Source: Massilicoli timonensis
GTDB taxonomy: Bacteria; Bacillota_I; Bacilli_A; Erysipelotrichales; Erysipelotrichaceae
Direction: 5' to 3'
Length of the DNA: 32,000 nt
Assembly (NCBI RefSeq): GCF_900199515.1
Contig: NZ_LT963434.1
Span: 1,562,180 to 1,594,179, forward strand
Part shown: piece after piece, positions 6,463 to 28,212 of the stretch
Layout: the number at the start of each line of letters is the position of its first letter
Numbering within the stretch: position 1 is the stretch's first letter
Notes under the pieces: model-generated
The model's database searches: none
Told to the model about the DNA's origin: nothing
What the model saw: the letters and a program-made list of their open reading frames with translations, nothing else
Translations under genes and position numbers: made by a program

Positions 6463-8349
6463 ATGATTGAAGTGATCGCTTGGATATTGAATAACAAATT
6501 TTACCAGAAGTACCGGGAGTATTTTCTGTTGCTGCTGGATCTGTTTCTGGTATGTGTGTCGTTTCTGATCGCGTTCTGGACCAAAGAGGATTTCCTGTTC
6601 CGGTTTGAGAATCATTTGGCACTAAAAAATGTCTTATTGTGGGCCGTGCTGGTAATCGGTGTCTACACTGTGAATTTTTTGATTTTTAAGGTACATCGCA
6701 GTCTGTGGAAATACATTGGGCCGATGGAAGCGGTCAGACTATGTCTGGCTGATGGCTTTGCGACGTTGATCTTGATGGGGATTGCGACATTTATTACCAA
6801 AGACGGCTATTATACAAGTGTTATTTTTGTAGCCGGTTTATTGAATGTGCTTTTGATGCTGGTGATACGCTTCGGGTATCGTTTGTTGAGACGCTATCAG
6901 ATCGATGAAAAGAAAAATACGATCAATGCGCTGATCATCGGTGCGGGAGACGGCGGCTATATCCTGTTGAAGGAGCTTACGCAAAATGAAAGCTATCATG
7001 CGCATGTAGTCGGCTTTTTAGATGATTTTCGTCATGATAAGATCGTTGCGGGGAAACCGGTGCTGGGTACGACGGAAGATCTGGCAGAGGTTGTGAAAAA
7101 GCATCGGATCCAGATCGTTTTTATCGCGATTCCCAGCGCTTCAAAGAAAGATGTGCGCAGGATCTATGAAAAATGTCAGGATCTGAATTTAGAAACGAAG
7201 ATCATGCGGCGTGGAGAAACGCTGCTTAGCGATACGCCGGGGAAAGAAACCTATCCGGTAAAAGATATTGCGATCGAGGATTTGTTGGGACGTGGTGAGA
7301 TTCGCTTGAATCAACAGGAGATCCGCTCTTATATTACCGGGAAAGTCGTTGCGGTTACCGGTGCGGGCGGTTCGATCGGTTCTGAATTATGCCGGCAGAT
7401 CGTGAAGTTCCATCCGAAACGACTGGTTTTGATCGATATCAATGAAAATACACTGTATATGCTGGAACAGGAATTTAATCGGGATCGAATGCATGGCAAA
7501 CTGGATCCGGAAATCGAGATCGTTTCTTATATCGCTTCCATTCGGGAACGTAAGGCGATCAATGAAGTGTTTGAACAAAATAAACCTGAGGTCGTTTATC
7601 ATGCGGCAGCGCATAAACATGTTCCGCTGATGGAAACAAGGCCGCAGGAAGCGATCAAAAACAATGTGTTCGGAACGAACAATGTCATTTCCCTCTGTAT
7701 TGCGCACCATGTTTCGCGCTTCATCATGATTTCAACGGACAAAGCGGTCAATCCGACAAATGTAATGGGAGCGACGAAGCGAATGACGGAAATGATCTTG
7801 CAGGCAAATGGCAAGAACGGTATTACGAAGATGGCAGCTGTGCGTTTTGGCAATGTGCTGGGCTCAAATGGTTCGGTAATTCCGATCTTTCAGCAGCAGA
7901 TTGCCGAAGGTGGACCGGTTACGATTACCGATAAAGGGATCATTCGTTATTTTATGACGATACCGGAAGCGGCGCAGCTGGTATTGCAGGCAGGCTATTA
8001 TGCGGATAAGGGAGAGATCTTTGTTCTGGATATGGGAGAACCGGTAAAGATCTTGAATTTGGCAGAGAAAATGATTCGTCTGTCCGGTCTGAAGCCTTAT
8101 GAGGATATTGATATCGTAGAGATCGGTTTAAGACCGGGTGAAAAGATGTTTGAGGAACTGCGTCTAGATGGCGAAGATACGGTAAAGACAAAGAATGATT
8201 TGATCTTTATCAATAAAGTAATGGATATTTCAATGAGTGAGATCAATGCAAAATTGCATACATTAAGTGAAATGCTTGCGTGTGGCGCTACGCGGGAAGC
8301 GTATCGGGAAACGATGCTGGAGATGATCAAAGACGTTAGCGCCGGCTGA
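6463..8349 (+). CDS. Membrane-anchored CapD/EpsC/PglF-family polysaccharide biosynthesis protein (UDP-HexNAc 4,6-dehydratase type)
   Basis: About 4 N-terminal TM segments, then a Rossmann fold IIGAGDGG and the SDR motif VTGAGGSIGSEL, plus YHAAAHKHVPLME and ISTDKAVNPTNVMGATKR. The start is uncertain (ATG 6463 or GTG 6472 after GAGGA); the ORF-track start at 6379 is unlikely. Confidence 0.85.
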   Translation: MIEVIAWILNNKFYQKYREYFLLLLDLFLVCVSFLIAFWTKEDFLFRFENHLALKNVLLWAVLVIGVYTVNFLIFKVHRSLWKYIGPMEAVRLCLADGFATLILMGIATFITKDGYYTSVIFVAGLLNVLLMLVIRFGYRLLRRYQIDEKKNTINALIIGAGDGGYILLKELTQNESYHAHVVGFLDDFRHDKIVAGKPVLGTTEDLAEVVKKHRIQIVFIAIPSASKKDVRRIYEKCQDLNLETKIMRRGETLLSDTPGKETYPVKDIAIEDLLGRGEIRLNQQEIRSYITGKVVAVTGAGGSIGSELCRQIVKFHPKRLVLIDINENTLYMLEQEFNRDRMHGKLDPEIEIVSYIASIRERKAINEVFEQNKPEVVYHAAAHKHVPLMETRPQEAIKNNVFGTNNVISLCIAHHVSRFIMISTDKAVNPTNVMGATKRMTEMILQANGKNGITKMAAVRFGNVLGSNGSVIPIFQQQIAEGGPVTITDKGIIRYFMTIPEAAQLVLQAGYYADKGEIFVLDMGEPVKILNLAEKMIRLSGLKPYEDIDIVEIGLRPGEKMFEELRLDGEDTVKTKNDLIFINKVMDISMSEINAKLHTLSEMLACGATREAYRETMLEMIKDVSAG

Positions 8350-8386: not shown

Positions 8387-8542
8387 AATTTAGATTGGTA
8401 TCTATGATGCCATTTACAGGATTATGCGGATTGAAATCGTCGCCCAGCGCGCGTTTCATGAAGGATATGGTCATTTCGTAACGGTCTATCTGATTTTTTT
8501 GGTTGGGTGGATAGGCGTAGCCTACCTGAAAGGAGTTTTTTT

Positions 8543-9061
8543 ATGGAAAACTGGTATGTGATACAGGTGAGAAGCGGGCAAGAGGAGCGGATCTTACGCA
8601 AGTGCCGCCTTTTGATCGACCATGCGGTTTTACATGATTGCTTTCTGCCGAAATGCGAGCGAATGAAAAAGATACGCGGACATTGGGAAAAGGTGGAGGA
8701 GCTGTTGTTTCGGGGCTATGTTTTTTTGATCAGTGATGATGTGCAGGCGTTGTATCATGAATTGTATAAAATTGATGATCTGACAAAGCTGCTGGGAAAG
8801 CATGGGGAGGATATTTATCCGCTGTATGAAAAGGAAGTGGCGTTTTTGAAGTCATTTGGCAGGATGGAGCATTTGGTCGAGATGTCTGTCGGCTATATGG
8901 AGGGAGAACGGATCGTTGTTATGGAAGGACCTTTGATGGGGAAAGAGGGGATGATCTGCAAGGTGGATCGCCATAAGCGGATCGCTGTGATTGAAGTAGA
9001 AATGTTTGGGAAGACGACGACCGCGAAGGTCGGACTTGAGATAGTGGCGAAACGCACATGA
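8543..9061 (+). CDS. Specialised NusG-family paralog (LoaP-like transcription antiterminator)
   Basis: 172 aa from ATG 8543 (AGGAG at 8531-8535). NGN motifs WYVIQVRSGQE and LFRGYVFL. C-terminal KOW GERIVVMEGPLMGKEGMICKVD. It sits at the head of a polysaccharide operon rather than in a secE-nusG-rplK context. Confidence 0.8.
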   Translation: MENWYVIQVRSGQEERILRKCRLLIDHAVLHDCFLPKCERMKKIRGHWEKVEELLFRGYVFLISDDVQALYHELYKIDDLTKLLGKHGEDIYPLYEKEVAFLKSFGRMEHLVEMSVGYMEGERIVVMEGPLMGKEGMICKVDRHKRIAVIEVEMFGKTTTAKVGLEIVAKRT

Positions 9062-9179: not shown

Positions 9180-10397
9180 ATGGAAAGTAGAACGATCCCT
9201 TTCAGTCCGCCGGATATCAGTGAAGCGGAGATTGCGGAAGTAGCGGAAGCATTACGTTCCGGATGGATTACAACAGGACCGAAAACAAAAGAATTTGAAA
9301 GACAGATTTCTGCCTATGTCGGCACAGAAAAAACAGTATGCCTGAACAGCGCAACTGCCGCAATGGAATTAACCCTGCGTTTGCTTGGGATCGGACCGGG
9401 AGATGAAGTAATCGTACCTGCCTATACTTATACGGCATCTTGCTCTGTCATTTGTCATGTTGGTGCGACACCGGTCATGATAGATTGTGCAAAAGACAGT
9501 TTTGAGATGGATTATGAACAAATGGCAAAGCGGATCAATGAAAAGACCAAAATGATCATACCGGTTGATTTGGCGGGTATCGTTTGCGATTATCGGAAGA
9601 TCTTTCAGATCGTAGAGGATAAACGCGCTTTATTTCATGCGAATCATGCGCTGCAGGCAGCATTTAACAGAATTATCGTCATGGCTGATTGTGCACATGG
9701 ATTTGGGGCAATGCAGAGTGATGTAAAAGCAGGGAATATTGCGGACTTTACGTGTTATTCTTTCCACGCCGTGAAGAATTTAACAACAGCTGAAGGCGGC
9801 GCGGTCACATGGAAAACCATACCGACAATCAGCAATGATTTTATTTATCAGCAATTTCAGCTGTTATCTTTGCATGGACAAACAAAAGATGCCTTGCACA
9901 AAAATCAGTTAGGCGCATGGGAGTATGATATTGTTGCACCGGCCTATAAATGCAATATGACAGATATTATGGCTGCCATCGGATTAAAGCAGTTAGAGCG
10001 ATATGAGGATCTGTTGAAGCGTCGTCATAAAATAATCCAAATGTATGATACAGCCTTGAAAGATTTGCCGGTAAAAGTATTGACACACAGCAGCAATCAC
10101 CACCGTTCCAGCGGTCATCTGTATTTTGTCAGAATCGAGGGGATCGGTGAAGAAACACGAAATGAGATCATTACCTCTATGGCAGAGGCAGGCATCGCAT
10201 GTAATGTTCATTATAAACCGCTGCCGATGCTTACCGCTTATAAAAACTTAGGATTTTCCATTGCAGATTTTCCAAATGCTTATCATCAGTATGAAAATGA
10301 AATCACGTTGCCGTTGTATAGTAAATTAAGTGATGAAGATGTTGCCTATATTCTGCAATGCTTCAAAGAGAGCTTGGAGAAGCATCAATGTTGTTAA
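9180..10397 (+). CDS. DegT/DnrJ/EryC1-family PLP aminotransferase (PglE/EpsN/WcfR-like, sugar 4-aminotransferase type)
   Basis: 405 aa. N-terminus FSPPDISEAEIAEVAEALRSGWITTGPK. Putative PLP-lysine context YSFHAVKNLTTAEGG. AGGAGG SD. The 3-prime end overlaps the next gene. Confidence 0.85.
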   Translation: MESRTIPFSPPDISEAEIAEVAEALRSGWITTGPKTKEFERQISAYVGTEKTVCLNSATAAMELTLRLLGIGPGDEVIVPAYTYTASCSVICHVGATPVMIDCAKDSFEMDYEQMAKRINEKTKMIIPVDLAGIVCDYRKIFQIVEDKRALFHANHALQAAFNRIIVMADCAHGFGAMQSDVKAGNIADFTCYSFHAVKNLTTAEGGAVTWKTIPTISNDFIYQQFQLLSLHGQTKDALHKNQLGAWEYDIVAPAYKCNMTDIMAAIGLKQLERYEDLLKRRHKIIQMYDTALKDLPVKVLTHSSNHHRSSGHLYFVRIEGIGEETRNEIITSMAEAGIACNVHYKPLPMLTAYKNLGFSIADFPNAYHQYENEITLPLYSKLSDEDVAYILQCFKESLEKHQCC

Positions 10398-11074
10398 AAA
10401 AATGGGATGATCTTCCGGTCTTCATGAAAAATGATGAAGTAAGAAAATATTATGATGTGCTTTCTAAAAAACGCGTCCACTTATGGTTGAAGCGTTTATT
10501 TGATATAGCAGCATCTTTTATTTTGCTCATTTTGTTATCACCGGTTTTTTTGTTACTGGCTATATGGATCAAAATGGACAGTCGGGGATCAGTTTTTTAT
10601 CGACAGGAACGAGTAACGCAGTATGGGAAGACATTTCGGATCTTCAAGTTTCGAACAATGGTAACGAATGCTGATCAGATCGGTGCATTGATTACCGGTC
10701 AAAACGATACACGCATTACAAGGGTGGGGGCAAAGATCAGAAAATCCCGTTTGGATGAGATACCACAGTTGTTGAACATTTTACGTGGAGAAATGAGTTT
10801 TGTGGGGACGCGACCGGAAGTACAAAAATATGTTGATTGCTATTCTGATGAGATGAAAGCAACACTGCTGATGCCGGCCGGGGTTACGTCTTTAGCAAGT
10901 ATCAAGTACAAAGATGAGGATGCATTGTTGGAAGCGGGAAGCATGAAAGGCAAGACAATCGATGAAATATATACGAAAGAGATATTGCCACAGAAGATGA
11001 AATATAACTTGGAGTATTTAAGGGAGTTTTGTTTTGTAAAGGATTTGAGCTTATGTGTGAAAACGGTGGTGTAA
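10388..11074 (+). CDS. Small monotopic phosphoglycosyl (undecaprenyl-phosphate sugar) transferase, PglC/WcfS/EpsL-like
   Basis: Bacterial sugar transferase motifs KRLFDI, one re-entrant hydrophobic helix, FKFRTM and RLDEIPQLLNILRGEMSFVGTRPE. ATG 10388 lies after GGAGAAG and overlaps the aminotransferase stop by 10 nt. Confidence 0.85.
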   Translation: MLLKKWDDLPVFMKNDEVRKYYDVLSKKRVHLWLKRLFDIAASFILLILLSPVFLLLAIWIKMDSRGSVFYRQERVTQYGKTFRIFKFRTMVTNADQIGALITGQNDTRITRVGAKIRKSRLDEIPQLLNILRGEMSFVGTRPEVQKYVDCYSDEMKATLLMPAGVTSLASIKYKDEDALLEAGSMKGKTIDEIYTKEILPQKMKYNLEYLREFCFVKDLSLCVKTVV

Positions 11075-11078
11075 TACA

Positions 11079-12284
11079 ATGAAAGTATGGTTAATACAGG
11101 CAAATGAGCCAATACCGGCGGTAGATAAAAATCAAAGACCTTTTCGTACCGGTATGCTTGCAGAAGCATTACTGAAACAGGGGCATGAAGTGGTATGGTT
11201 TGCCGCAACATTTGATCACTACACAAAAACACAGCGATTTTCTGTTAATCAAATGGTGCAAATTGAGGACAATTTTCAAATTCAATTTTTATATGGCTGC
11301 CGTTATCAAAAAAATATTTCTTTACTGCGAATAAAAAATCATATCCAAATTGCTAAACAATTCAAACGCGTATCAAGGAAGCTGCAACAGCCAGATTTAA
11401 TTTATTGTTCATTCCCGCCAATCTATCTTGCCAAAAAAGCACTCAGTTACGCAAATCAAAAAAATATAAAATTTGTATTAGATGTTCGAGATTTATGGCC
11501 AGAAGTATTTGAACGAGCTGTTCCTAAAAAAATGTATTGGGTTACTAATCCGATTTTTCGCTACTTACATCGTTTAGTAAATCAATTATATCGTAATTCA
11601 TACGCTGTAAATGCTGTTTCGAATGAATGTGTTAATTACGTAATAGAAAAATCCGGAAGAAAAAAGAAAAAATATGATAGCGGCTATTTTATTGGCTTTC
11701 CGAATCGCTATCAATTAAGTGCAGAAGAGAGTTTGATAGCCAGAGCAGAAAAAGTACAAATTATTTTTGTAGGTACATTAAGTAATCAGATCAACTATGA
11801 TTTGATATGTAAGATAGCAATGAAACTTAAAAACATTGATTTTATTATTGGTGGCGATGGACCGCTTTCAGAAGATTTCCATACGTTGGCAAAAGATCTC
11901 CCTAATATCCAATTCAAAGGGTGGTTAGATGCAAATACAATTCAACAATATATGAAACAAGCATCCTTTGCGTTGATCCCATATTATGATACTTTTGATT
12001 TTCAATTAGGCGTAGGAAATAAATTTGCAGAAGCACTTTGCTATGCTTTACCACCGATTGTATTGTGCAATGGTGTAATGAAAAATCTTATATTAAATAA
12101 TCAATGTGGTGTTTTTGGAAAGGATGCCCATGATGTAGCATATCAAATCACTGAGCTTTTAGATGATGACATAAAATACCAAAATTATGTTAAAAATGCA
12201 CATCATCTTTATCAGGAACAATTTGATTCTAGCAAGATTTATCCAAATTTAGTAAATGATCTAGTGAAATTACAGGAGGAATAG
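11079..12284 (+). CDS. Glycosyltransferase (GT4/GT-B-like)
   Basis: 401 aa. The C-terminal half has a GT-B-like pattern (IIFVGTL..., GGDGP, ALIPY). The assignment rests on general architecture only. Confidence 0.6.
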   Translation: MKVWLIQANEPIPAVDKNQRPFRTGMLAEALLKQGHEVVWFAATFDHYTKTQRFSVNQMVQIEDNFQIQFLYGCRYQKNISLLRIKNHIQIAKQFKRVSRKLQQPDLIYCSFPPIYLAKKALSYANQKNIKFVLDVRDLWPEVFERAVPKKMYWVTNPIFRYLHRLVNQLYRNSYAVNAVSNECVNYVIEKSGRKKKKYDSGYFIGFPNRYQLSAEESLIARAEKVQIIFVGTLSNQINYDLICKIAMKLKNIDFIIGGDGPLSEDFHTLAKDLPNIQFKGWLDANTIQQYMKQASFALIPYYDTFDFQLGVGNKFAEALCYALPPIVLCNGVMKNLILNNQCGVFGKDAHDVAYQITELLDDDIKYQNYVKNAHHLYQEQFDSSKIYPNLVNDLVKLQEE

Positions 12285-12287: not shown

Positions 12288-13367
12288 ATGAAATATGCAC
12301 TGATCGGATGTGGGAGAATATCCCCGAATCATATAGCAGCCGCAATACAAAACGAACTGGAAATCATCGCGGTATGCGATATCGTAAAAGAGAACATGGA
12401 AAACTTATTAAGCAGATTTACATATGATTTCCATCAAACAAACCGATATACAGATTATAAAGAGATGATCCTAAAGGAACAGCCGGACCTAGTCGCAATC
12501 GCAACAGAATCCGGCCTTCATGCAGAGATCGCTCTTTTTTGTATCGCTCATAAAGTCAATGTCATCATCGAAAAACCGATCGCTATGAATATGAAAGATG
12601 CACGCATGATCTGTGAAGCAGCGGAAAAGTATGATGTCGTTGTATGTGCGAACCATCAGAACCGCTTTAATAAATCCATTCAGAAGATCCATGAAGCAAT
12701 GGAAGAAAAGCGATTCGGGAAACTGTTTCATGCAGCTGCTCATGTGAGATGGAACCGCAATAAAGGTTATTATGATCAGGCCAAGTGGCGCGGTACTTGG
12801 GTAAATGACGGAGGCTGTCTGATGAACCAATGTATTCATAATGCCGATCTATTAAGATGGATGATGGGAGATGAAGTGGAAGAAGTCATGGCTTACACCG
12901 ATAATCTGAATCATGATTATATTCAGGCAGAAGATCTGGGATTGGCTGTGATCAAATTCAAGAACGGCGCTTATGGACTATTTGAAGGAACGGTCAATGT
13001 CTATCCGAAGAATTTGGAAGAAACGCTGTATATCTTTGGCAGTAAAGGGACAGTGAAAGCCGGAGGGAAATCAGTGAATATCATTGAAGAATGGGAATTT
13101 GCGGATGAAAAAGAGGATGCGGAAGCAGTAAAGCAAGCGCATAGTGAAAATCCGGAGAATGTCTATGGCTTCGGACATGATCCGTTATATGCAGATGTGA
13201 TCGGTGCGATCAAAGAACACCGTAAACCATTGGTAGATGCAGAAGCAGGGATGCGTGCATTGGAATTGATCTTGGCGATCTATGAATCGGCGGCGACGGG
13301 GAAAGCGGTAAAGCTGCCGTTAGGCGATATTGCTTCTACTGATTATGAAGGAAGATTCGGTGAATAA
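12288..13367 (+). CDS. Gfo/Idh/MocA-family NAD-dependent sugar oxidoreductase (WbpB/WlbA/GnnA-like)
   Basis: N-terminal Rossmann fold YALIGCGRISPNH and the EKP motif (VIIEKPIAMN). AGGAGG SD. Context with an aminotransferase and a sugar dehydrogenase. Confidence 0.75.
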   Translation: MKYALIGCGRISPNHIAAAIQNELEIIAVCDIVKENMENLLSRFTYDFHQTNRYTDYKEMILKEQPDLVAIATESGLHAEIALFCIAHKVNVIIEKPIAMNMKDARMICEAAEKYDVVVCANHQNRFNKSIQKIHEAMEEKRFGKLFHAAAHVRWNRNKGYYDQAKWRGTWVNDGGCLMNQCIHNADLLRWMMGDEVEEVMAYTDNLNHDYIQAEDLGLAVIKFKNGAYGLFEGTVNVYPKNLEETLYIFGSKGTVKAGGKSVNIIEEWEFADEKEDAEAVKQAHSENPENVYGFGHDPLYADVIGAIKEHRKPLVDAEAGMRALELILAIYESAATGKAVKLPLGDIASTDYEGRFGE

Positions 13368-13368
13368 G

Positions 13369-14076
13369 ATGAAGTTTACTTATGATGCTTACCGTAAACT
13401 GCTCTTAACTTTCAAAAACAACGGTTATCAGGATATTTTTTATCAGGAAGCGGATATGACAAAAAAGCAGGTCATTTTAAGACATGATATCGACAATTCG
13501 ATAGAAGATGCCTTAAAAATAGCGGAGATAGAGAAAGAAGTAGGTATGAAGAGTACCTATTTTGTATTGATCGGTACAGAATTTTATAATCTTTTTACAA
13601 AGCGTTCCAAAGAGATGATCGAAAAAATAATCGCCTATGGACATTCCGTGCAGTTACATTTTGATGTTACTAATTATGACATCAGCTCAAAAGAGGATCT
13701 GATCCAAATGATCGAGAAAGAAATGCGAATACTGGAGATGATTACGAAACAGCCGGTCCATGTCGTGTCTTTCCATAGACCTTTGCGAGAATATTTTAAT
13801 GAAACGATTTCAAATTCTTTCATTTCTGCTTATGACAAACAGTTTTTCAGCGACTTCAAGTATGTCAGCGATTCACGAAGAAACTGGAAAGATGACCCTT
13901 ATGAAGCAGTGGCGAATGGTTACCGACATATCCAGTGTTTGACACATGCTTTTTGGTATGATGAAAGGGAAAGGACCGCACATGACAAGATAGCGTTATT
14001 TAAGACAAAATGTGCAGATAAAACGCAAGAAGCATTATATCAAAACATAACCGATTTAGATGAATTGATAAAGTGA
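13369..14076 (+). CDS. Hypothetical protein, possibly a divergent polysaccharide-deacetylase-like beta/alpha-barrel
   Basis: 235 aa from ATG 13369. ILRHDIDNS...A..IAEIE...G.KSTYFVL resembles the RHDVD/STYF pattern I associate with divergent CE4-like deacetylases. This is a weak recollection and needs an HMM search. Confidence 0.35.
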   Translation: MKFTYDAYRKLLLTFKNNGYQDIFYQEADMTKKQVILRHDIDNSIEDALKIAEIEKEVGMKSTYFVLIGTEFYNLFTKRSKEMIEKIIAYGHSVQLHFDVTNYDISSKEDLIQMIEKEMRILEMITKQPVHVVSFHRPLREYFNETISNSFISAYDKQFFSDFKYVSDSRRNWKDDPYEAVANGYRHIQCLTHAFWYDERERTAHDKIALFKTKCADKTQEALYQNITDLDELIK

Positions 14077-14087
14077 GAAGGTGATGA

Positions 14088-14975
14088 ATGATGGATGCAT
14101 ATGATGTCCTAAACTATCTTAATGAAAAGAAAGTCCATTATCGGGTAAATGGATTAAAGCAGATTTTGATCACACAGTATTGTCCGTTAAAAGAATTAAA
14201 GCCGCATGCGATTACATGGTTGAAGCAATATGATGCGAAAATTACCGAAGCAAACCCGGAAACATTGTTCGTGTGCAAAATAGAAGATCATACAGAGCAT
14301 GGCGATAACGTCATCTTTGTAGAATCCTTAAAGAGAACGTTTTTTCGGATCATTCGTGATCTTTTCAACCTTGATGCAATGAAAGAAAGTAAGATCGAAC
14401 CAAGTGCAGTCGTGCTATCCAAACAAGTAGGAGATGCGGTTTATATCGGACATCATACTTTTATTGATAAGGAAGTAACGATCGGAGACGGTACGATCAT
14501 CATGCATAATGTTACCATTCAAGGAAAAGTCGTGATCGGTGATGACTGTTTGATCGAATCAGGTGCCGTGATCGGCGGCTGTGGGTTTGGTACTTATCTG
14601 GATGAAGAAGGACATCCTGAATTAGTGCCGCATCCGGCAGGTGTAACAATAGGCGATCATGTTAAGATCTTTGCCAATACATGCATCGTGAGAGGCTGTC
14701 TCTCTGATACGATCATCGAAGATCATGCAATGGTAGATAATCTGTGTCATATTGCACACAATGTTCATTTACATGAAAACGTACAGGTCGCGGCTTGTTC
14801 CGAGATTTCCGGCAGTGCAACGATAGGAAGAGACAGTTGGATTGCACCGGGGGTAACGATCTTAAACGGTATCCATGTTGGAGAAAATGTTTATACGGGA
14901 ATCGGAAGCAATCTGGTAAAAGATGTGCCGGACCATACTTTGGTATATGGGAATCCGGCAAAGTCGAAAAAATAG
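14088..14975 (+). CDS. LpxD-type left-handed beta-helix UDP-sugar N-acyltransferase, paralog 1
   Basis: A non-LbH N-terminal domain of about 100 aa, then hexapeptide repeats. IGGCGFGTY...VTIGDHVKIFANTCIVRGCLSDTIIEDHAMVDNLCHIAHNV aligns with E. coli LpxD IGSDGFGY...[41 protein letters not shown], including the catalytic His context. Confidence 0.7.
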   Translation: MMDAYDVLNYLNEKKVHYRVNGLKQILITQYCPLKELKPHAITWLKQYDAKITEANPETLFVCKIEDHTEHGDNVIFVESLKRTFFRIIRDLFNLDAMKESKIEPSAVVLSKQVGDAVYIGHHTFIDKEVTIGDGTIIMHNVTIQGKVVIGDDCLIESGAVIGGCGFGTYLDEEGHPELVPHPAGVTIGDHVKIFANTCIVRGCLSDTIIEDHAMVDNLCHIAHNVHLHENVQVAACSEISGSATIGRDSWIAPGVTILNGIHVGENVYTGIGSNLVKDVPDHTLVYGNPAKSKK

Positions 14976-14984
14976 GAGGTAGTT

Positions 14985-16127
14985 ATGCAATTCATAGACT
15001 TAAAAGCACAATATGAAGTGTTAAAAGATGAGATCGATGCAAATATACAAAGTGTATTGGATTCAGGGCAATACATGATGGGAGATCATGTAAAACAATT
15101 GGAAAAAGAATTAGCGGAATATGTCGGAACAAAGCATTGTATTACCTGTGCAAACGGGACCGATGCCTTACAGCTTGCTTTGATGGTCTGGAACATCAAA
15201 GCAGGAGATGCGGTATTCGTTCCGAGCTTTACCTTTTATTCTACTGCCGAGGTCGTATCGCTTCTAGGCGCTACACCGATCTTTGTAGATACCAATCCGA
15301 GAACCTTTAATATTGATACAGTAAAATTAGATCAGGCGATCCAAAAAGTAAAACAGGAAGGGAAATTAACACCGAAGGTCATCATTCCTGTCGATCTGTT
15401 TGGTCAACCGGCTGATTATGAAAGCATCAGACGAATTGCCAATAAACATAAGCTGTATGTATTGGAAGATGGTGCACAGGGATTTGGCGGAACGATCGAT
15501 GGAAAGAAAGCATGTTCATTCGGCGATATTTCCACTACCTCTTTCTTCCCGGCAAAACCGCTTGGCTGTTATGGAGATGGCGGAGCGCTCTTTACGGATT
15601 CAGATGAATACTATGAGTTGCTTACTTCTTTGCGTGTCCATGGGAAAGGAACATTCAAGTATGACAATGTACGAGTGGGAATGAACTCACGTTTAGATAC
15701 ATTACAAGCAGGTATCTTGTTACCGAAGTTAAAGGCATTCAAAGACCATGAGATGGAAAAGCGCAATCTCTTTGCGAAGCAGTATACGATGCTGTTAAAA
15801 GAGCATGTCATCACTCCATATGTGCCGGAAGGGATGGAGTCCAGCTGGGCGCAGTACACGATCCTGCTTCGATCAGAAGAGGAGCGCACCTTCATACAAG
15901 AGCGATTGAAGAAAAAACAGATTCCGACAATGATCTATTATCCGAAGCCGCTTCATCAGCAGAGCGTCTATCAGGATTACGATTTTAACTTAGATGAGTT
16001 GAAAGAATGCGAGCATGTGGCAAAGGTTTGTTTGAGTTTGCCGATGCATCCATATTTAGATACAGAAACAGTGAATTATATTGCCAATAGTTTGATTGAA
16101 TGCTTAAAGGAGTATCGCCATGTTTAA
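14985..16127 (+). CDS. DegT/DnrJ/EryC1-family PLP aminotransferase (WbpE/WlbC/GnnB-like, sugar 3-aminotransferase type)
   Basis: 380 aa. MQFIDLKAQY start typical of this subfamily. TTSFFPAKPLGCYGDGGA (PLP-Lys context). AGGAGG SD. Confidence 0.85.
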   Translation: MQFIDLKAQYEVLKDEIDANIQSVLDSGQYMMGDHVKQLEKELAEYVGTKHCITCANGTDALQLALMVWNIKAGDAVFVPSFTFYSTAEVVSLLGATPIFVDTNPRTFNIDTVKLDQAIQKVKQEGKLTPKVIIPVDLFGQPADYESIRRIANKHKLYVLEDGAQGFGGTIDGKKACSFGDISTTSFFPAKPLGCYGDGGALFTDSDEYYELLTSLRVHGKGTFKYDNVRVGMNSRLDTLQAGILLPKLKAFKDHEMEKRNLFAKQYTMLLKEHVITPYVPEGMESSWAQYTILLRSEEERTFIQERLKKKQIPTMIYYPKPLHQQSVYQDYDFNLDELKECEHVAKVCLSLPMHPYLDTETVNYIANSLIECLKEYRHV

Positions 16128-17010
16128 GTTATCGGAATTATTTGAAGAAGTCCATCAAGATGGGTGCTTTGAAGTATTAGGAATTCTAGATTCCAAAACA
16201 TCAAGACCGATGCTGACCTTTATTGAAAGCGAAAAGCATATCGATCAGCTCATGCAGAAAAATAATGTTACCTGCGTCATCACGAATGAGGAAACATACC
16301 ACAGTCTTCCAAAAGAACATACTTTCGGTGTTGTTATCAGCAATGATCCCCGTAATACTTTTTTTCGCCTGCATAATTCTTTAAGTATAGATGCGTGCTA
16401 TAAAAGAGAACAATTCCCAACTAAGATCGGAACAGATTGTCAGATATCGCCGCTTTCCTGTATCGCAGAACATAACGTTGTGATCGGCAATCATGTCAAG
16501 ATCGAAGAATTTGTTTCTATCAAAGAAAATGTTGTGATCGGAGATAACTGCATGATTCGCAGCGGCACTGTTATCGGCGGATGTGGCTTTGAATTCAAGA
16601 AAGATGGCGATGCACAGTATCGGGTCGAGCATTTAGGCGGTGTTATCATCGGTCATGACGTTGAGATCCAGCATAACTGTGCGATCGATAGAGCCGTATA
16701 TCCGTGGGATGATACGAAGATCGGTGATTATTCAAAATTGGATAATCTGATCCATATCGGACATGCAGCTAAAATAGGGAATAATGTCATGATGCCGGCC
16801 TTATCAGTGATCGGCGGCAGAACGGAAATAAAAGATCACGCCTGGATCGGAATCGGTAGTGTGATCAGGAATGGATTAGTAATTGGCACGCATGCCAGGA
16901 CCAATATGGGAGCAGTGGTAACAAAGGATGTTGCAGATCATCAAGCTGTTACAGGCAATTTTGCAATTGAGCATAAGAAGTTTATAGAAAAGCTAAAAAA
17001 GGAGAATTGA
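16120..17010 (+). CDS. LpxD-type left-handed beta-helix UDP-sugar N-acyltransferase, paralog 2
   Basis: Same architecture as 14088-14975. IGGCGFEF...VIIGHDVEIQHNCAIDRAVYPWDDTKIGDYSKLDNLIHIGHAAKIG. The start ATG overlaps the aminotransferase stop (ATGTTTAA). Confidence 0.7.
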   Translation: MFKLSELFEEVHQDGCFEVLGILDSKTSRPMLTFIESEKHIDQLMQKNNVTCVITNEETYHSLPKEHTFGVVISNDPRNTFFRLHNSLSIDACYKREQFPTKIGTDCQISPLSCIAEHNVVIGNHVKIEEFVSIKENVVIGDNCMIRSGTVIGGCGFEFKKDGDAQYRVEHLGGVIIGHDVEIQHNCAIDRAVYPWDDTKIGDYSKLDNLIHIGHAAKIGNNVMMPALSVIGGRTEIKDHAWIGIGSVIRNGLVIGTHARTNMGAVVTKDVADHQAVTGNFAIEHKKFIEKLKKEN

Positions 17011-17015
17011 GGGAA

Positions 17016-18329
17016 ATGAAAGAACTACTATTGAATAAAATCGCAAATAAAGAAATCGTTGTCGGTGTAGTCGGATTAGGGTATGTAGGACTGCCTTTGG
17101 CAGTGGAAAAAGCAAAGGCAGGATTTCAGACGATCGGCTTTGATGTGCAAAACGAAAAAGTGGACATGGTCAATGCAGGAAAAAACTATATCGGCGATGT
17201 TGTGGATGATGATCTTTCGGATTTGGTAAAAAACGGCATGTTAAGTGCAACGACAGATTTCAGTTTCATCAAAGATGTGGACTTTGTGGCTATTTGTGTT
17301 CCGACACCGCTTGATACGCATCAGCAGCCGGACATCAGTTATGTAAAAGCAAGCTCGGAAGCAATTTCAAAACATTTGAGAAAAGGAACGATGGTCGTAT
17401 TGGAGTCCTCTACTTATCCGGGAACGACTGAGGAATTGGTAAGACCGATCTTAGAAGAAGGATCAGGACTGATATGCGGTACTGATTTTTATTTAGGCTT
17501 TTCACCGGAACGAGTAGACCCGGGGAATGCAGTCTATCACACAAAAAATACACCGAAAGTAGTCGGAGCAATCGGGAAAGATGCGACGGAAGTCATTGCG
17601 GCCATGTATCGTGCGGTGCTGGATGGCGATATCCATGAAGTGTCCTCTCCGGCAGTAGCAGAGATGGAGAAGATCTTGGAAAACACATATCGGAATATCA
17701 ACATCGGATTGGTGAATGAGATCTGTATGTTATGTGAAAAGATGGGGATCTCGGCATGGGAAGTGATCGATGCAGCGAAAACAAAGCCATTTGGTTATCA
17801 GGCGTTTTATCCGGGACCCGGATTAGGCGGACATTGTATCCCGCTTGATCCATATTATCTGACATGGAAGGCTAGAGAGTATGGGTTTCATACATCTATG
17901 ATCGAGAACAGTATGATCATCAATGACAAGATGCCGGAATACTGTGTAGAAAGATGTTACAAGGTGTTAAACAAGCAGAAGAAAGCGATGTCAGAAGCGA
18001 AGATATTGGTGCTTGGTGTGGCATATAAGAATGATATAGATGATTATCGGGAAAGTCCGGCATTGAAGGTAATCGAATTATTGAAGGCAGAGGATGCGGA
18101 TGTGGATTTCTATGATCCGTATATTCCGACATATCGTTATAAAGGAGAAAGCTATACGGGAATTAAGGGAATCGATCCGGAAGTGTTACAGGGATATGAT
18201 CTGGTAGTGATCACGACCGCACATAAATCATATGATTTGGAAATGATCCAGAAGAACAGCAAGGCCATCTTTGATACGAGAAATGCGATGAAAGATTATT
18301 TTGCATATGATAATGTTGAATTGCTTTAG
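17016..18329 (+). CDS. UDP-N-acetyl-hexosamine 6-dehydrogenase (WbpA/WbpO/TviB-type nucleotide-sugar dehydrogenase)
   Basis: Rossmann fold VVGLGYVGLPLA, catalytic-Cys motif GGHCIPLDPYYL, and GFSPERVDPGN. ATG 17016 preferred over the ORF-track TTG 17007. Confidence 0.8.
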   Translation: MKELLLNKIANKEIVVGVVGLGYVGLPLAVEKAKAGFQTIGFDVQNEKVDMVNAGKNYIGDVVDDDLSDLVKNGMLSATTDFSFIKDVDFVAICVPTPLDTHQQPDISYVKASSEAISKHLRKGTMVVLESSTYPGTTEELVRPILEEGSGLICGTDFYLGFSPERVDPGNAVYHTKNTPKVVGAIGKDATEVIAAMYRAVLDGDIHEVSSPAVAEMEKILENTYRNINIGLVNEICMLCEKMGISAWEVIDAAKTKPFGYQAFYPGPGLGGHCIPLDPYYLTWKAREYGFHTSMIENSMIINDKMPEYCVERCYKVLNKQKKAMSEAKILVLGVAYKNDIDDYRESPALKVIELLKAEDADVDFYDPYIPTYRYKGESYTGIKGIDPEVLQGYDLVVITTAHKSYDLEMIQKNSKAIFDTRNAMKDYFAYDNVELL

Positions 18330-18361
18330 CAGATTAAGGATTTAATGCCATGGAGAAAAAC

Positions 18362-19309
18362 ATGACTTCCTTAAAAACAGGTATTGTAATTTTGAATTAT
18401 AATACAAGTGAAGAAACGAAAAAATGTGTTTACTCAATTCGTAAATTTGAAAAGCAATATACAATATATATCGTAGATAACTGTTCATCAGACCATTCAT
18501 GGGATGATTTATATCATACTTTTCATAATGATCACGATATAGTGTTACTCCGCGCTTCCCGAAATGGTGGTTATTCATACGGAAATAATATCGGTATTAC
18601 AAAATGTTTAGAAGACAACTGTGATATTATTTATATAGTTAATAGTGATATAGAGCTATTGAATAGTGCATTTACGATCATGACCAAAACACTGATCAAT
18701 AATCCGCATTGTATGATAATAGGGCCTTCTGTAGTAGATAACCATGGAAATGAAGTGCAACTGGCAAAAAAGAAGTTAACTCTAAGAAATTTTATTTATG
18801 GACGACATCCTTTTTGTAATATTTCCTTTTTTAAGAAGAAAGTTGATCGTTTGTATGATATACCTGTAAATCAGCGTTTTTTTATTTTTCAAGGCATGGC
18901 TTCCGGTTGCTGTTTTGGAATACGGGCAACTGACTTTAAGCAAATCCACTATTTTGATGAAAATGTATTTCTTTATTACGAAGAAGATATTTTAATTTGT
19001 AAACTTGCTTCTCATGAACGAAAGGCTATTATTGATCATGACGCAAAAGTTTGGCATAAAGAAAGTGTATCGACTAAAAAATCTGGGTTTGCTTTTATCA
19101 GATATCATCGCTGGAACAGTGTAACATATTATTTATACGAATATTTACAACTTAATTTTTTTATTAGGACATTGATATTTATTTGGAACACAGTTACATG
19201 GCTGCTGCTTTCAATACGATCAAGGACATACCGAGAATTGCTGCATGATTTTATAAAAAAGCAAACAAAACTATTGTTTAAGCGATACGATACATCTATT
19301 AAAAAATAA
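18362..19309 (+). CDS. Family 2 glycosyltransferase
   Basis: GIVILNYNTSEETKKCVYSI, VDNCSSD and NGGYSYGNN are classic GT2 N-terminal motifs. ATG 18362 (after GGAG) preferred over 18350. Confidence 0.7.
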   Translation: MTSLKTGIVILNYNTSEETKKCVYSIRKFEKQYTIYIVDNCSSDHSWDDLYHTFHNDHDIVLLRASRNGGYSYGNNIGITKCLEDNCDIIYIVNSDIELLNSAFTIMTKTLINNPHCMIIGPSVVDNHGNEVQLAKKKLTLRNFIYGRHPFCNISFFKKKVDRLYDIPVNQRFFIFQGMASGCCFGIRATDFKQIHYFDENVFLYYEEDILICKLASHERKAIIDHDAKVWHKESVSTKKSGFAFIRYHRWNSVTYYLYEYLQLNFFIRTLIFIWNTVTWLLLSIRSRTYRELLHDFIKKQTKLLFKRYDTSIKK

Positions 19310-19329
19310 CGAAGAAGGCGGTATTAGAC

Positions 19330-20409
19330 ATGTATTTATTATTGCATTGCTTGTTTTTACTGGGAATATCTTTATATAGTGGAATTGGTACTAAGTTTTT
19401 TCCTAAGCAACACGAGCAGAAAGTAATTATAGGAATATTATTTCTATATTCTTTACTCATTGCATTACGTCCCTTAGATACAAAAGATACTTTGGCATAT
19501 GTAAACTTATATAACCAAATAGATGGTTTGGTATTGCCTGCTTTTGGTTTGTTCTCGAAAGTTAAAGGTATTGAGTATGGTTTTATCGTTCTAATGAAAA
19601 TCATGAGTTTTTTCTGTATCCCTTATCAACTATTTTTATTCATCCTTGCATTCTCAACAAATCTTTTGATTTATAGTTTTTTTACTTATTTTATCAAAGT
19701 TTATTATCCGTCTTTATTTGAAAAATCAAACATATTGATCATTATCTTACTGTTTTACATTTGCAGTTATGGACTGATGTATAGTGGTGTCGCAATACGA
19801 GCAGGATTATCTGTCGGTGTAATGTTGTTGGGCATACGGATTTTAGAACAAAAACATATTAAATCAGCAATTTTACTTATGTTGATTGCTTTTTCCTTTC
19901 ATAAAATGTGTATTGTAATTGTTATTGCCTACATGATTTGGAAATATATTCCAGTATTAGAGAAACGCATTTATTTTATTATTACTTTGTTATTGGGTCT
20001 GCTATTAGTATCTGGAGCTACAGATTTTCTTTTGAGAATATCACTCTCAAGTATAAATGGAATCTTAACCTTTTTAGGAATTCATGGATATAGTGCATAC
20101 TTTAATAGTATTGACTCTGCCATTGGAATCATTGATTTATACTGGCTTTTTTATACTCTTGTTCTCTGCTACTTTCTCAGCAATGAAAAAGCAGATAAAA
20201 AGGTTTTTCAAATTATATTATCAGGTTTGCTCGTCATTAGCTTTTTCCATGGAATCAGAGCAATCAATCGTATTTATGACTATTTTTATATTTTTTCTAT
20301 TGTTCCTATATGTAAGATGATTTATGCAGAAAACAGAAACATACGTTTAATCTCCTGTTTTTTAATATTCTGCAATGCAGTTTTAATGATAAGACTTTGC
20401 TTTTTCTAG
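19330..20409 (+). CDS. EpsG-family / Wzy-type polytopic membrane protein (putative repeat-unit polymerase)
   Basis: 359 aa, about 10 predicted hydrophobic segments, very AT-rich. Its position among glycosyltransferases and next to a flippase is typical of polymerases. No catalytic motif verified. Confidence 0.55.
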   Translation: MYLLLHCLFLLGISLYSGIGTKFFPKQHEQKVIIGILFLYSLLIALRPLDTKDTLAYVNLYNQIDGLVLPAFGLFSKVKGIEYGFIVLMKIMSFFCIPYQLFLFILAFSTNLLIYSFFTYFIKVYYPSLFEKSNILIIILLFYICSYGLMYSGVAIRAGLSVGVMLLGIRILEQKHIKSAILLMLIAFSFHKMCIVIVIAYMIWKYIPVLEKRIYFIITLLLGLLLVSGATDFLLRISLSSINGILTFLGIHGYSAYFNSIDSAIGIIDLYWLFYTLVLCYFLSNEKADKKVFQIILSGLLVISFFHGIRAINRIYDYFYIFSIVPICKMIYAENRNIRLISCFLIFCNAVLMIRLCFF

Positions 20410-20429
20410 CATGAAATGAGGTGAGTAGT

Positions 20430-21539
20430 ATGAAAGGTATTTTTATTACCTATGTACCAACAGAAAAAGATACTACCGGTGTGGGGAAAAAAATAAGAGG
20501 CCAGATTCAAGCTTTTAATAAAAATGATCTTTATTGCAGTGAAATCACGATGTATCATTCTACAAGCAAATTGATGCGTCTTCTTTATAAATTTCCATTT
20601 TACAATGGCGCTCCGATTTGGAAGTGGGATACATGTTTTGAGCAGATCGATTATTTATATATGCGGCGTCCATTAGTTGTTTCAGGCTATATGATAAAAT
20701 TCTTAAAGCGCATAAAAAAGAGAAATCCTTTCGTAAAAATTATTTACGAAATACCTACTTATCCTTATGACAAGGAATTATATTCCTTTAAGTTTCGTCA
20801 TTTACTGATATGGAAAGATCGGTTTAACCGAAAAAAATTACATGATGTTGTGGATAGAATTGTCACTCTTACAGATGATAAAATTATTTTTCATACGCCG
20901 ACCTTAAAAATTCTAAATGGGGTGGATCTTAAAGAAAACAGTGTAAAAAAGATAAGCAGAAATAATGATGAGACGATTCAGATCTGTGCAGTTGCAATTT
21001 TTAAGGAATGGCATGGTTATGAACGCGTTTTATATGGTTTAGCACAATATTATCATAATGGTGGCACAAGAAATATCGTTTGTCATTTTGTCGGTGATGG
21101 AAGTGAATTAGCGTTCTATAAGAAAATAGTCGATGAAAAACAGCTTAATGAACATGTTAAATTTTATGGGATGTTAAAAGATCAGGAATTGATTTCTATT
21201 TATAATCAATGTAGGCTATCTTTAGAATCATTTGGTAGTTATAAGAAAAACATCAAGATTTCATGTGGACTAAAATCCAGAGAGATGCTTGCCAGAGGCT
21301 TACCTCTAATTGCCGGGAATCATGTAGATTTATTCATGGATCGAGATTTTCCGTATTTTTTAGAATTCCCTAACAATGATTCTATTATTGATTTTCAAAA
21401 GATTATAGATTTTTATGATCGCATTTATACTACTGAAAGTGAAGAAGTTGTCATACAAAAAATCAGAAGTTTTGCTGAAAATCATGTTGATATTGAAGCA
21501 GGTATGAAAACAGTGATCGAGTACATCAAGTGCGGCTAG
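20430..21539 (+). CDS. Glycosyltransferase (GT-B-like)
   Basis: ATG 20430 lies after GAGGTGA. The C-terminal half VGDGSELAFYKKIVDEKQLNEHVKFYGML resembles the GT4 donor-binding region. Weak assignment. Confidence 0.5.
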   Translation: MKGIFITYVPTEKDTTGVGKKIRGQIQAFNKNDLYCSEITMYHSTSKLMRLLYKFPFYNGAPIWKWDTCFEQIDYLYMRRPLVVSGYMIKFLKRIKKRNPFVKIIYEIPTYPYDKELYSFKFRHLLIWKDRFNRKKLHDVVDRIVTLTDDKIIFHTPTLKILNGVDLKENSVKKISRNNDETIQICAVAIFKEWHGYERVLYGLAQYYHNGGTRNIVCHFVGDGSELAFYKKIVDEKQLNEHVKFYGMLKDQELISIYNQCRLSLESFGSYKKNIKISCGLKSREMLARGLPLIAGNHVDLFMDRDFPYFLEFPNNDSIIDFQKIIDFYDRIYTTESEEVVIQKIRSFAENHVDIEAGMKTVIEYIKCG

Positions 21540-21551
21540 ACGGAGGTAATC

Positions 21552-22658
21552 ATGAAAATATGTCATATATGTTCATATTTCGATAATATTCTTTTTTCTG
21601 ATTTATTTGAAGCACTGCAAAAACAAGAAATAGATGGAAGAGTTTACTATTTTAAGGCTAATGGATATCCACCAACAAATGCTGATCATCCATATGTTGA
21701 TTTGAGGTACTGCTTTGAAGATCATCAAAAATATTTATTTCATTGGAAACACAGTAAAGTCTGGAATGATTTTAAGCAGTATGGCAGTACGCAAACATTC
21801 GATTTATTATTTGCTCATTCCCTTTTTTCAAATGGTTATATTGCGTATAAATGGAAAAAAGAAAAAAATATCCCTTATATTGTATATGTTCAAAATACCG
21901 ATATCAATGTATTTTTCAAGTATAGACTGTTTTTACGTAAACTCGGATTAACAATACTAGAACATGCTGATCGAGTAGTTTTTGCTTCAGAAAGTTATAG
22001 AACCACATTATTTCAACAGTATGTAAAAAGTAAAAGGCAACGAGAGCAGCTTATGAAGAAATCGGTAATCATCCCATACGGTATTAACGATTTATTTTTC
22101 CATAAATTCTCAAAAAAGCCAAAAGAAAAGAGATCGGAAATTAAAATTCTTTGCGTCGGCTTGATTTGCAAAAATAAAAACCAAATCACCCTTCAAAAAG
22201 CAATTGAGATTTTAAGAAAAAAAGGTTTAGATGCTTCCCTTACTCTTATTGGAAAGCATCAAAATGATCATATTTATCAATCACTGTGTAATTGTGAGTT
22301 TGTCAGAATTGTAGAGTATATGTCAAAAGAAGAATTACTAAAATACTATAGAGAAAGCGATGTTTTTTGCTTACCTTCATTAACAGAAACCTTCGGATTG
22401 GTATATGCAGAAGCAATTTCACAGGGGCTACCGATTTTATATACAAAAGGACAAGGATTTGATTGCCAATTTCCTGAAGGAACAGTCGGTTATCACGTAA
22501 ACGCAACTGATCCATTTGATATTGCTAATAAGATTATGTTAATTTGTAATGAACCCAATAAATATAATGCTTGTATAAGCAATGCCAAAAAATTTTCATG
22601 GGAACGCATCGCATATGATTATAAAGTGCTATTCAATTCTGTTATTCAAAAACAATAA
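21552..22658 (+). CDS. Family 4 glycosyltransferase
   Basis: FCLPSLTETFGLVYAEAISQGLPILYT contains the GT4 E-x7-E region. GGAGG SD. Confidence 0.75.
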   Translation: MKICHICSYFDNILFSDLFEALQKQEIDGRVYYFKANGYPPTNADHPYVDLRYCFEDHQKYLFHWKHSKVWNDFKQYGSTQTFDLLFAHSLFSNGYIAYKWKKEKNIPYIVYVQNTDINVFFKYRLFLRKLGLTILEHADRVVFASESYRTTLFQQYVKSKRQREQLMKKSVIIPYGINDLFFHKFSKKPKEKRSEIKILCVGLICKNKNQITLQKAIEILRKKGLDASLTLIGKHQNDHIYQSLCNCEFVRIVEYMSKEELLKYYRESDVFCLPSLTETFGLVYAEAISQGLPILYTKGQGFDCQFPEGTVGYHVNATDPFDIANKIMLICNEPNKYNACISNAKKFSWERIAYDYKVLFNSVIQKQ

Positions 22659-28211: not shown

Positions 28212-28212
28212 G

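Follow-up and report, generated by a model that had tools for sequence, protein, structure and literature searches.

A Wbp/Wlb-type nucleotide-sugar module with a predicted N-acyl editing pair in Massilicoli timonensis

RESULTS

Gene content of the module

The window analysed here is a 32,000-nucleotide (nt) stretch of the Massilicoli timonensis genome (assembly GCF_900199515.1, contig NZ_LT963434.1, positions 1,562,180 to 1,594,179), and the subject of this work is a cluster of genes at window positions 12288-18329 that resembles the Wbp/Wlb pathway for 2,3-diamino-uronic acids and also encodes a deacetylase-like protein (CE4L) and two relatives of the acyltransferase LpxD (AT1 and AT2). An initial annotation, made from the sequence without database searches, had described six contiguous, translationally coupled genes in this region, and six plus-strand open reading frames with the same boundaries were found:

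12288-13367, plus strand, 359 amino acids (aa): Gfo/Idh/MocA oxidoreductase with N- and C-terminal Pfam domains, a WlbA/WbpB-like UDP-GlcNAcA 3-dehydrogenase
13369-14076, plus strand, 235 aa: CE4L, a CE4/NodB-fold protein, predicted to be a cytoplasmic UDP-sugar N-deacetylase
14088-14975, plus strand, 295 aa: AT1, an LpxD-like left-handed β-helix (LbH) N-acyltransferase, predicted to add a new acyl group to the amine that CE4L exposes
14985-16127, plus strand, 380 aa: WbpE-like pyridoxal-phosphate-dependent aminotransferase (DegT), assigned from PF01041 and WbpE structures
16120-17010, plus strand, 296 aa: AT2, a second LpxD-like LbH N-acyltransferase, in the WbpD (3-N-acyl) slot
17007 (or ATG 17016)-18329, plus strand, 437-440 aa: predicted UDP-HexNAc 6-dehydrogenase of the WbpA/TviB/WecC class

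The junctions between successive genes are +1, +11, +9, −8 (an overlap) and −4/+5 nt. The last value depends on the start of the dehydrogenase, since use of the ATG at 17016 turns a 4-nt overlap with AT2 into a 5-nt gap; this ATG is the likely start because DNA identity to conspecific contigs (see below) resumes at 17016. The gene starts are preceded by Shine-Dalgarno-like sequences. The tight packing, the overlaps and these sequences are in keeping with the coupling described initially, although co-translation of the module genes is itself only plausible. Chance juxtaposition of the six genes was ruled out by the synteny kept in conspecific and distant genomes.

The Wbp/Wlb core enzymes

The original assignments of the oxidoreductase, the aminotransferase, the two LbH proteins and the dehydrogenase were all upheld by Pfam, NCBIfam and Protein Data Bank (PDB) matches. 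The best solved relatives of the 12288-13367 product are 3q2i and 3q2k (E = 6e-72 over residues 2-345), which we take to be structures of WlbA. The 14985-16127 product matches PF01041 with E = 9.5e-105 and the WbpE structures 3nyu, 3nu7 and 3nys with E = 3e-100 to 2e-99. The dehydrogenase has three UDPG_MGDP_dh Pfam domains, scores 432 bits against TIGR03026 and matches 4r16 (E = 2e-74) and Cap5O (E = 5e-66) in the PDB; its score lies under every equivalog cut-off (TviB, WecC and archaeal ManNAc dehydrogenase), although its class, NDP-sugar dehydrogenase, is clear. Judged by these matches, the Wbp/Wlb core in the window is real, and with a Wbp/Wlb-type 3-dehydrogenase, a WbpE-like aminotransferase, a predicted UDP-HexNAc 6-dehydrogenase and an N-acyltransferase clustered together, the description of the region as a 2,3-diamino-uronic-acid module holds.

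CE4L has the fold of CE4/NodB deacetylases

The 235-aa protein had been singled out for its RHDID and STYF motifs, and both (residues 38-42 and 62-65, respectively) are conserved in its family. This family is large and has no Pfam model: 3614 representatives were found at E ≤ 1e-3, with 1042 matches in a word-indexed search. The CE4 model PF01522 scores 20.6 bits on CE4L, under its gathering cut-off of 23.1, and matches just 19 of 61 family members at E ≤ 0.01. Sequence matches of CE4L to CE4 chains in the PDB are marginal even with a profile (E = 0.004-0.09), so the CE4 assignment rests on fold comparison. An AlphaFold (AF2) model built from a 61-sequence alignment reached a pLDDT of 96.6 (from the single sequence the pLDDT was 48.8 and the model unusable). 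When this model was compared with the PDB by Foldseek, the top 18 matches were all CE4/NodB deacetylases, with probability 1.0 and TM-scores of 0.41-0.57, and ArnD followed at rank 19. The fold check therefore bears out the early suggestion that the protein is deacetylase-like, its activity being a prediction.

The residues invariant across the 61 diverse sequences (RHDxD, H97-F-D99-E100, H136-R-P138, SDSRxxW and L-T-H193) occur in the same order as CE4 motifs 1-5, for which the canonical forms are D-D, H(S/T)xxH, RxPY, DxxDW and LxH, with an Asp-His-His metal triad and a catalytic base and acid. In the profile alignment the two metal-binding His positions of motif 2 are occupied by H97 (first) and E100 (second), which suggests a variant metal site. 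No signal peptide or transmembrane segment was seen in the CE4L sequence, and action in the cytoplasm is therefore expected.

Nine long representatives of the family were examined: seven are fusions of CE4L with a GNAT domain, one with an ATP-grasp domain and one with a UDP-GlcNAc 2-epimerase. These fusions agree with a sequence in which a nucleotide sugar is acted on and an amide is then formed. The GNAT partners and fusions of the family are of the Acetyltransf_3 type. The single 235-aa sequence gave no match when used as query against the genome contigs for close relatives, and a look-up of the exact 235-aa product came back empty, gene callers placing its start further upstream.

AT1 and AT2 are related to LpxD

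AT1 and AT2 are 37% identical to each other, and LpxD is the closest solved and the closest curated family for both. The AT1 family profile matches Escherichia coli LpxD with E = 4.5e-64 and the AT2 family profile matches A. baumannii LpxD with E = 4.8e-38, in each case covering both the N-terminal domain (i-E 1.3e-11 and 6.6e-8, respectively) and the LbH. The catalytic His239 of LpxD aligns with His224 of AT1 and His215 of AT2, each of which is invariant in its own family. The match does not extend to the C-terminus of LpxD. AT1 does not go past its LbH (about LpxD residue 310 of 341), AT2 has a tail of only 13 residues past the LbH, and the profile alignments of both families end at LpxD residues 300-317. 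Absent from both proteins are thus the ∼35-residue C-terminal helical extension of LpxD, which docks acyl-ACP (acyl carrier protein) in LpxD-ACP complexes, and also one N-terminal LbH coil.

Both proteins score under the LpxD cut-offs, at 174.5 (AT1) and 155 (AT2) bits for NF002060 (cut-off 207) and at 163.9 and 141.4 bits for TIGR01853 (cut-off 242.5). Matches between WlbB (3mqg) and AT1/AT2 have E = 3e-4 to 7e-6, with 2.9e-4 for AT2. By these comparisons AT1 and AT2 are homologues of LpxD but are not LpxD. Of the full LpxD layout attributed to them by the initial annotation, the N-terminal domain, the LbH and the catalytic His stand, but the C-terminal ACP-recognition helices and one LbH coil are lacking and the scores are sub-threshold. 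Because the ACP-recognition C-terminus is absent and the scores fall under the LpxD cut-offs, acyl-CoA is a more likely donor for AT1 and AT2 than acyl-ACP, and the longer, ACP-derived acyl chains once envisaged are unlikely.

The AT2 slot is exchanged within the species

Comparison with three other M. timonensis contigs (L001, L002 and L003) by blastn gave DNA identities of 98.7% over window positions 12288-16116 and 98.5% over 17016-18303, with no DNA match in any of the three to positions 16117-17015, the AT2 gene. The same slot encodes a 193-aa WbpD-type LbH protein in L001 (12773-13353) and L003, and a 244-aa formyltransferase in L002 (8344-9076). The 3-N-acyl slot is diversified within the species, being filled by an acetyl-type, a formyl-type or an AT2-type enzyme, and it is because conspecific strains put a WbpD-type or formyltransferase gene there that AT2 is placed in the 3-N-acyl (WbpD) slot. 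Nor are the genes for the glycosyltransferases, polymerase and flippase the same in the window as in L001 and L002. As for the proposal that the sugar bears two different N-acyl groups, the slot swap makes two different N-acyl positions plausible.

CE4L and AT1 genes are linked across genomes

A profile scan of species-representative genomes found a CE4L relative in at least 545 genomes, and 80 loci were analysed, their neighbouring genes being called by phmmer with the window proteins as queries. The loci are mostly from Lachnospiraceae and Oscillospiraceae, with others from Ureibacillus, Planococcus, Filibacter, Gordonibacter and Fusobacterium. CE4L adjoins a gene for a long LpxD-like LbH protein in 53 of the 80, and in 52 an AT1-type gene lies directly downstream; the other neighbours include a formyltransferase (3/80), an ATP-grasp protein (2/80) and a GNAT (2/80). 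In 59 loci one or more of the Wbp core genes can be found on the same strand at a distance of up to 6 kb, and in 23 all three are nearby. Two or more long LbH genes are present in 12. In GCA_029782595.1, an ATP-grasp gene and CE4L replace CE4L and AT1 within the same Wbp module, with a short WbpD-type gene after the aminotransferase.

Wherever a MaoC (R)-hydratase gene occurs it stands directly beside a long LbH gene (10 of 10 loci), which points to a hydroxyacyl-CoA donor. One such locus is that of [Eubacterium] hominis (L007:1780-7891, order MaoC-AT1-CE4L ... DegT-short WbpD-AT2), whose AT1 is the closest non-conspecific relative of the window AT1 (50% identity). In two other loci, L011 and L012, a 67%-identical homologue of AT2 is the only acyltransferase of a WbpB-DegT-AT2-dehydrogenase module.

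Some loci have other arrangements. The [Eubacterium] infirmum-type locus L009:924-7906 has three long LbH genes and a CE4-like gene, and no uronic-acid dehydrogenase. In four Lachnospiraceae loci (L018:6968-13868, L026:6986-12067, L031:6956-12011 and L074:7001-11836) there is no polysaccharide module around the CE4-like and AT1-like genes, and the genes downstream of this pair encode a VTC-domain protein, a DUF4956 protein and a protein of 650-667 aa that has no Pfam match; a CotH kinase-like protein (530-544 aa) also follows the pair in L018 and L074 and is absent from L026 and L031.

The surrounding locus and the host

The module is flanked on both sides by genes for glycan assembly:

6379-8349, plus strand: PglF/CapD-like 4,6-dehydratase (Pfam Polysacc_synt_2)
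8507-9061, plus strand: NusG paralogue (Pfam NusG, N-terminal, and KOW)
9180-10397, plus strand: PglE/EpsN-like aminotransferase (Pfam DegT)
10358-11074, plus strand: PglC-like initiating phosphoglycosyl transferase (Pfam Bac_transf)
11079-12284, plus strand: GT4 glycosyltransferase, directly upstream of the module (Pfam Glycos_transf_1 and Glyco_transf_4)
18350-24187, plus strand: GT2 glycosyltransferase, EpsG-like polymerase, two GT4 glycosyltransferases and Wzx flippase (Pfam Glycos_transf_2, EpsG, Glycos_transf_1 twice, and Polysacc_synt)
24435-24818: 127-aa protein made up of the Spo0A C-terminal (DNA-binding) domain alone, lacking the receiver domain
25361-26713: AAA_14/DUF4143 ATPase
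27075-28262, minus strand: UDP-GlcNAc 2-epimerase of a second glycan cluster
28213-29439, minus strand: CapF-like protein (SDR plus cupin/Polysacc_synt_C) of the second glycan cluster
within 27075-31919, minus strand: a 507-aa flippase-like protein and a 309-aa protein, both with multiple transmembrane segments and no Pfam match

By gene content, the module is within a Wzx/Wzy-type polysaccharide locus. The NusG paralogue, just upstream of the first biosynthetic genes, resembles locus-specific antiterminators of the LoaP/UpxY type, and the related locus L011 is also headed by a NusG gene. No PglD/EpsM-type acetyltransferase gene was found beside the PglF/PglE/PglC-like genes in the window or in the conspecific L001; the amine on the initiating 4-amino-4,6-dideoxy sugar may stay free (AAT-like), or the gene for its acylating enzyme may lie elsewhere. 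The second glycan cluster (27075-31919) is convergent with the first, and the block with the Spo0A-domain and ATPase genes that lies between them is ∼96% identical in L001 and L002, where it is inverted relative to the module.

The delta subunit reported for the window is present as a HARE-HTH gene at 3503-3826. The clusters at 90% identity to which MiaA, GalU, AT1 and AT2 belong carry the name of M. timonensis. From its taxonomy (Erysipelotrichaceae), M. timonensis is likely to be monoderm. The species was described as staining Gram-negative, with a genome of 3.1 Mb and a GC content of 53% (PMC6796691). The GC content of the window (∼30-47%) is at odds with that figure, and the published genome statistics or naming may be inconsistent.

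DISCUSSION

A proposed N-acyl editing pathway

On balance we think it probable that the locus encodes a Wbp/Wlb nucleotide-sugar module to which an N-acyl editing pair, CE4L and AT1, has been added. By homology, the 6-dehydrogenase would convert UDP-GlcNAc to UDP-GlcNAcA, the WlbA/WbpB-like enzyme would oxidize this to the 3-keto sugar, and the WbpE-like aminotransferase would then give UDP-GlcNAc3NA. AT2 would acylate the 3-amine, as the replacement of genes in its slot suggests, and so be an alternative to the WbpD acetyltransferase or to the formyltransferase. The fold, conserved residues, linkage and fusions point to the editing steps, in which cytoplasmic CE4L would hydrolyse the native 2-N-acetyl group of the UDP-sugar and AT1 would place a non-acetyl acyl group from acyl-CoA on the freed 2-amine. 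The AT2, CE4L and AT1 steps, in whatever order, would yield a UDP-2,3-diamino-2,3-dideoxy-hexuronic acid that is N-acylated at both amines, in one case or both with a group other than acetyl; from this sugar the Wzx/Wzy locus would build a strain-specific surface polysaccharide.

Three arguments bear on the specificity of the pair. The 2-N-acetyl group is the only N-acetyl present before the module acts, so N-2 is the most plausible target of CE4L, and the same argument has been made for the CE4 protein VimE (PMC7468200). The group added by AT1 would be other than acetyl, because re-acetylation after deacetylation would be futile. UDP-sugars are the expected substrates, given the homology of the AT1 N-terminal domain to the uridine-binding domain of LpxD and the CE4L-epimerase fusion. 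The deacetylate-then-reacylate logic of the initial annotation is strongly suggested by linkage, both by the 53 of 80 loci with the LbH neighbour and by the formyltransferase, ATP-grasp and GNAT partners.

Several observations weigh against this interpretation. There is no adjacent re-acylating gene in 20 of the 80 CE4L loci and no nearby Wbp core gene in 21, so the substrate of CE4L-AT1 may not be the diamino uronic acid; pairs beside CotH, VTC and DUF4956 genes suggest that it may be a more general UDP-HexNAc. The 32-kb window contains no acyl-donor genes (MaoC, ACP or ligase). As AT2-like proteins are the sole acyltransferases of plain Wbp modules, AT2 may just transfer acetyl. The assignment of roles is incomplete for [Eubacterium] hominis, with three acyltransferases for two amines, and the picture of one enzyme per amine is likewise incomplete where three LbH acyltransferases accompany one CE4-like gene (L007 and L009). 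CE4L is only a distant CE4 relative, with Glu at the second His position of motif 2, and CE4 pseudoenzymes (BA3943) are among its top structural matches. The searched literature contained no biochemical or structural-chemistry data on any family member.

Alternatively, the module could be a plain Wbp pathway with redundancy, in which AT1 and AT2 are both acetyl-CoA-dependent long forms of WbpD, the product is ordinary UDP-GlcNAc3NAcA, and CE4L is a pseudoenzyme or serves something unrelated (e.g. a free amine for a zwitterionic polymer). The AT2-only modules L011 and L012, the lack of donor genes in the window and the pseudoenzymes near CE4L in structure all agree with such an explanation. We nevertheless regard it as unlikely: were CE4L and AT1 independent, their adjacency in 53 of 80 loci and the amide-forming fusions and neighbours of CE4L would be hard to explain, and catalytic-type Asp and His residues are invariant across the 61 CE4L sequences. 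The conspecific exchange of AT2 for an acetyltransferase or a formyltransferase also implies that its slot serves chemical diversification, and [Eubacterium] hominis keeps a short WbpD right beside its AT2-like gene.

It is rather less probable again that AT1 or AT2 N-acylates the UDP-4-amino-4,6-dideoxy-HexNAc of the PglF/PglE-like enzymes, taking the place of the missing PglD/EpsM-type acetyltransferase. The PglF/PglE/PglC-like trio does stand in the window with no PglD-like gene, and LbH enzymes that N-acylate 4-amino sugars, namely WeeI (4m9c), PerB and VioB, are among the weaker PDB matches of AT1 and AT2, but PglD-like genes co-occur with CE4L-AT1 in 9 of the 80 loci, so AT1 is no substitute for them. 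AT2 was rejected as a PglD substitute because the conspecific L001, with neither AT2 nor a PglD-like gene, keeps the same PglE/PglC-like genes (98.8% DNA identity); moreover, AT2 is encoded between WbpE and the dehydrogenase, at a position where WbpD-type or formyl enzymes are its alternatives.

Lipid-A-like chemistry, in which AT1, AT2 or both would, as LpxD does, use long-chain (R)-3-hydroxyacyl-ACP and so lipidate the diamino sugar of a Firmicute to give a GnnA/GnnB-like glycolipid, might be read from the closeness of AT1 and AT2 to LpxD, from the NCBI labelling of their homologues as LpxD and from the Gram-negative stain reported for the type strain (PMC6796691), but it is very improbable and a genuine LpxD or lipid A function was rejected, since the ACP-docking helical domain is absent and the scores are sub-threshold, the Wzx/Wzy polysaccharide locus carries a uronic-acid dehydrogenase with no LpxA, LpxC or LpxB gene in the 32-kb window, the AT families spread through Lachnospiraceae, Oscillospiraceae and Bacillales, and the linked donor gene, where present, encodes a MaoC hydratase acting on CoA thioesters.

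Possible wider implications of the proposed editing pair

A broader version of the editing proposal, which we advance tentatively and rate at somewhat less than an even chance, is that in Firmicutes CE4L-AT1 forms an N-acyl editing cassette, self-contained and shuffled horizontally. Its enzymes would act in the cytoplasm on UDP-HexNAc-type sugars, swap the universal N-acetyl for another group, e.g. an (R)-3-hydroxyacyl from a CoA thioester, and together with exchangeable 3-N-acyl enzymes generate serotype diversity among gut commensals. Where monoderm Firmicutes have genes annotated as 'LpxD', of which there are hundreds, the product would be this enzyme, which branched from the lipid A acyltransferase lineage and is independent of ACP.

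If the editing prediction holds, it would give a function to a CE4-like family that numbers 3614 or more representative clusters and is present in no fewer than 545 species genomes, and would mean that ∼950 LpxD-like clusters in monoderm Firmicutes are now mis-named as a lipid A enzyme. In gut Clostridia and Erysipelotrichia, capsule loci and loci of the O-antigen-like kind would become readable by a simple rule, CE4L with a partner indicating that the 2-N-acetyl group is replaced and the gene after WbpE indicating the 3-N substituent. The M. timonensis strains, with an LpxD-like, a WbpD-type or a formyltransferase allele in near-identical flanks, would be a natural three-allele experiment. 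N-acyl decorations of surface glycans bear on immune recognition, phage receptors and glycoengineering.

Comparison with known systems

The core of the module is that of the Wbp/Wlb pathways for UDP-GlcNAc3NAcA and UDP-ManNAc3NAcA (Pseudomonas aeruginosa WbpA/B/E/D/I and Bordetella WlbA-D), with a 6-dehydrogenase (here of predicted sugar specificity), a 3-dehydrogenase and an aminotransferase in a cluster and an N-acyltransferase gene following the aminotransferase. It differs in that the acyltransferase slot holds the 296-aa LpxD-like AT2 in place of a ∼190-aa WbpD/WlbB-type protein, the core genes are interrupted by genes for a CE4-like and another LpxD-like protein, and there is no 2-epimerase in the module.

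The likeness to the Raetz pathway lies in the proposed deacetylation of a UDP-GlcNAc-type sugar (as by LpxC) and the proposed acylation of the 2-amine by an enzyme with the N-terminal domain, LbH and His of LpxD. The oxidase and transaminase pair of the module is analogous to GnnA/GnnB of the 3-amino lipid A variant. However, the fold of the predicted deacetylase is that of CE4 enzymes and not of LpxC, AT1 and AT2 have no ACP-recognition C-terminus and score under the LpxD model cut-offs, and the sugar would be a uronic acid for a polysaccharide repeat unit, with no other lipid A genes nearby.

A deacetylase of the CE4/NodB fold working with an N-acyltransferase to replace acetyl with another acyl group is also found in Nod-factor synthesis, where NodB is paired with NodA. 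The substrate of NodB is a chito-oligosaccharide, and NodA, which takes fatty acyl-ACP as its donor, has no relation to the LbH enzymes; here, by contrast, the proposed substrate is a nucleotide sugar and the acyltransferase is an LbH protein.

AntD, the QhbA/WeeI class, QdtC, PerB and VioB are, like the predicted AT1 and AT2, LbH N-acyltransferases, being trimers that act on nucleotide-linked amino sugars, with CoA donors other than acetyl-CoA. They are shorter, with a different N-terminal domain or none, and have another catalytic arrangement; AT1 and AT2 are far nearer to LpxD (E = 1e-38 to 1e-64) than to the AntD/WeeI-type PDB matches (1e-11 to 1e-22). Some LbH sugar N-acyltransferases add 3-hydroxybutyryl-type groups (PMC3628348).

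A precedent for the editing logic is the Wbp/Vim pathway, proposed in 2020 for Porphyromonas gingivalis and Tannerella forsythia: the CE4 protein VimE would take the 2-N-acetyl group off the Wbp product, and VimA would add a seryl or glycyl group to the 2-amine (PMC7468200). The same deacetylate-reacylate logic is proposed there for the same sugar, and in both systems a CE4 gene is tied to Wbp genes, so the logic is not unprecedented. The differences are that VimA is a FemAB/GNAT-like aminoacyl transferase whereas the partner here is a homologue of LpxD with an LbH; that VimE, compared by description only, is reported at 1e-83 to the CDD CE4 model whereas CE4L falls under the Pfam CE4 cut-off; and that the setting is a Firmicute Wzx/Wzy locus rather than the type IX secretion system/anionic lipopolysaccharide (T9SS/A-LPS) system. 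The searched literature held no characterised pair of a UDP-sugar CE4 deacetylase with an LbH protein and no LpxD homologues in Gram-positive capsule loci. Relative to these systems, what appears to be new is the pairing of a CE4 subfamily that has no Pfam model with an LpxD homologue that has no ACP domain, and, apparently also, the wide spread of the CE4L-AT1 pair in Firmicutes and the swapping of the 3-N-acyl enzyme within a species.

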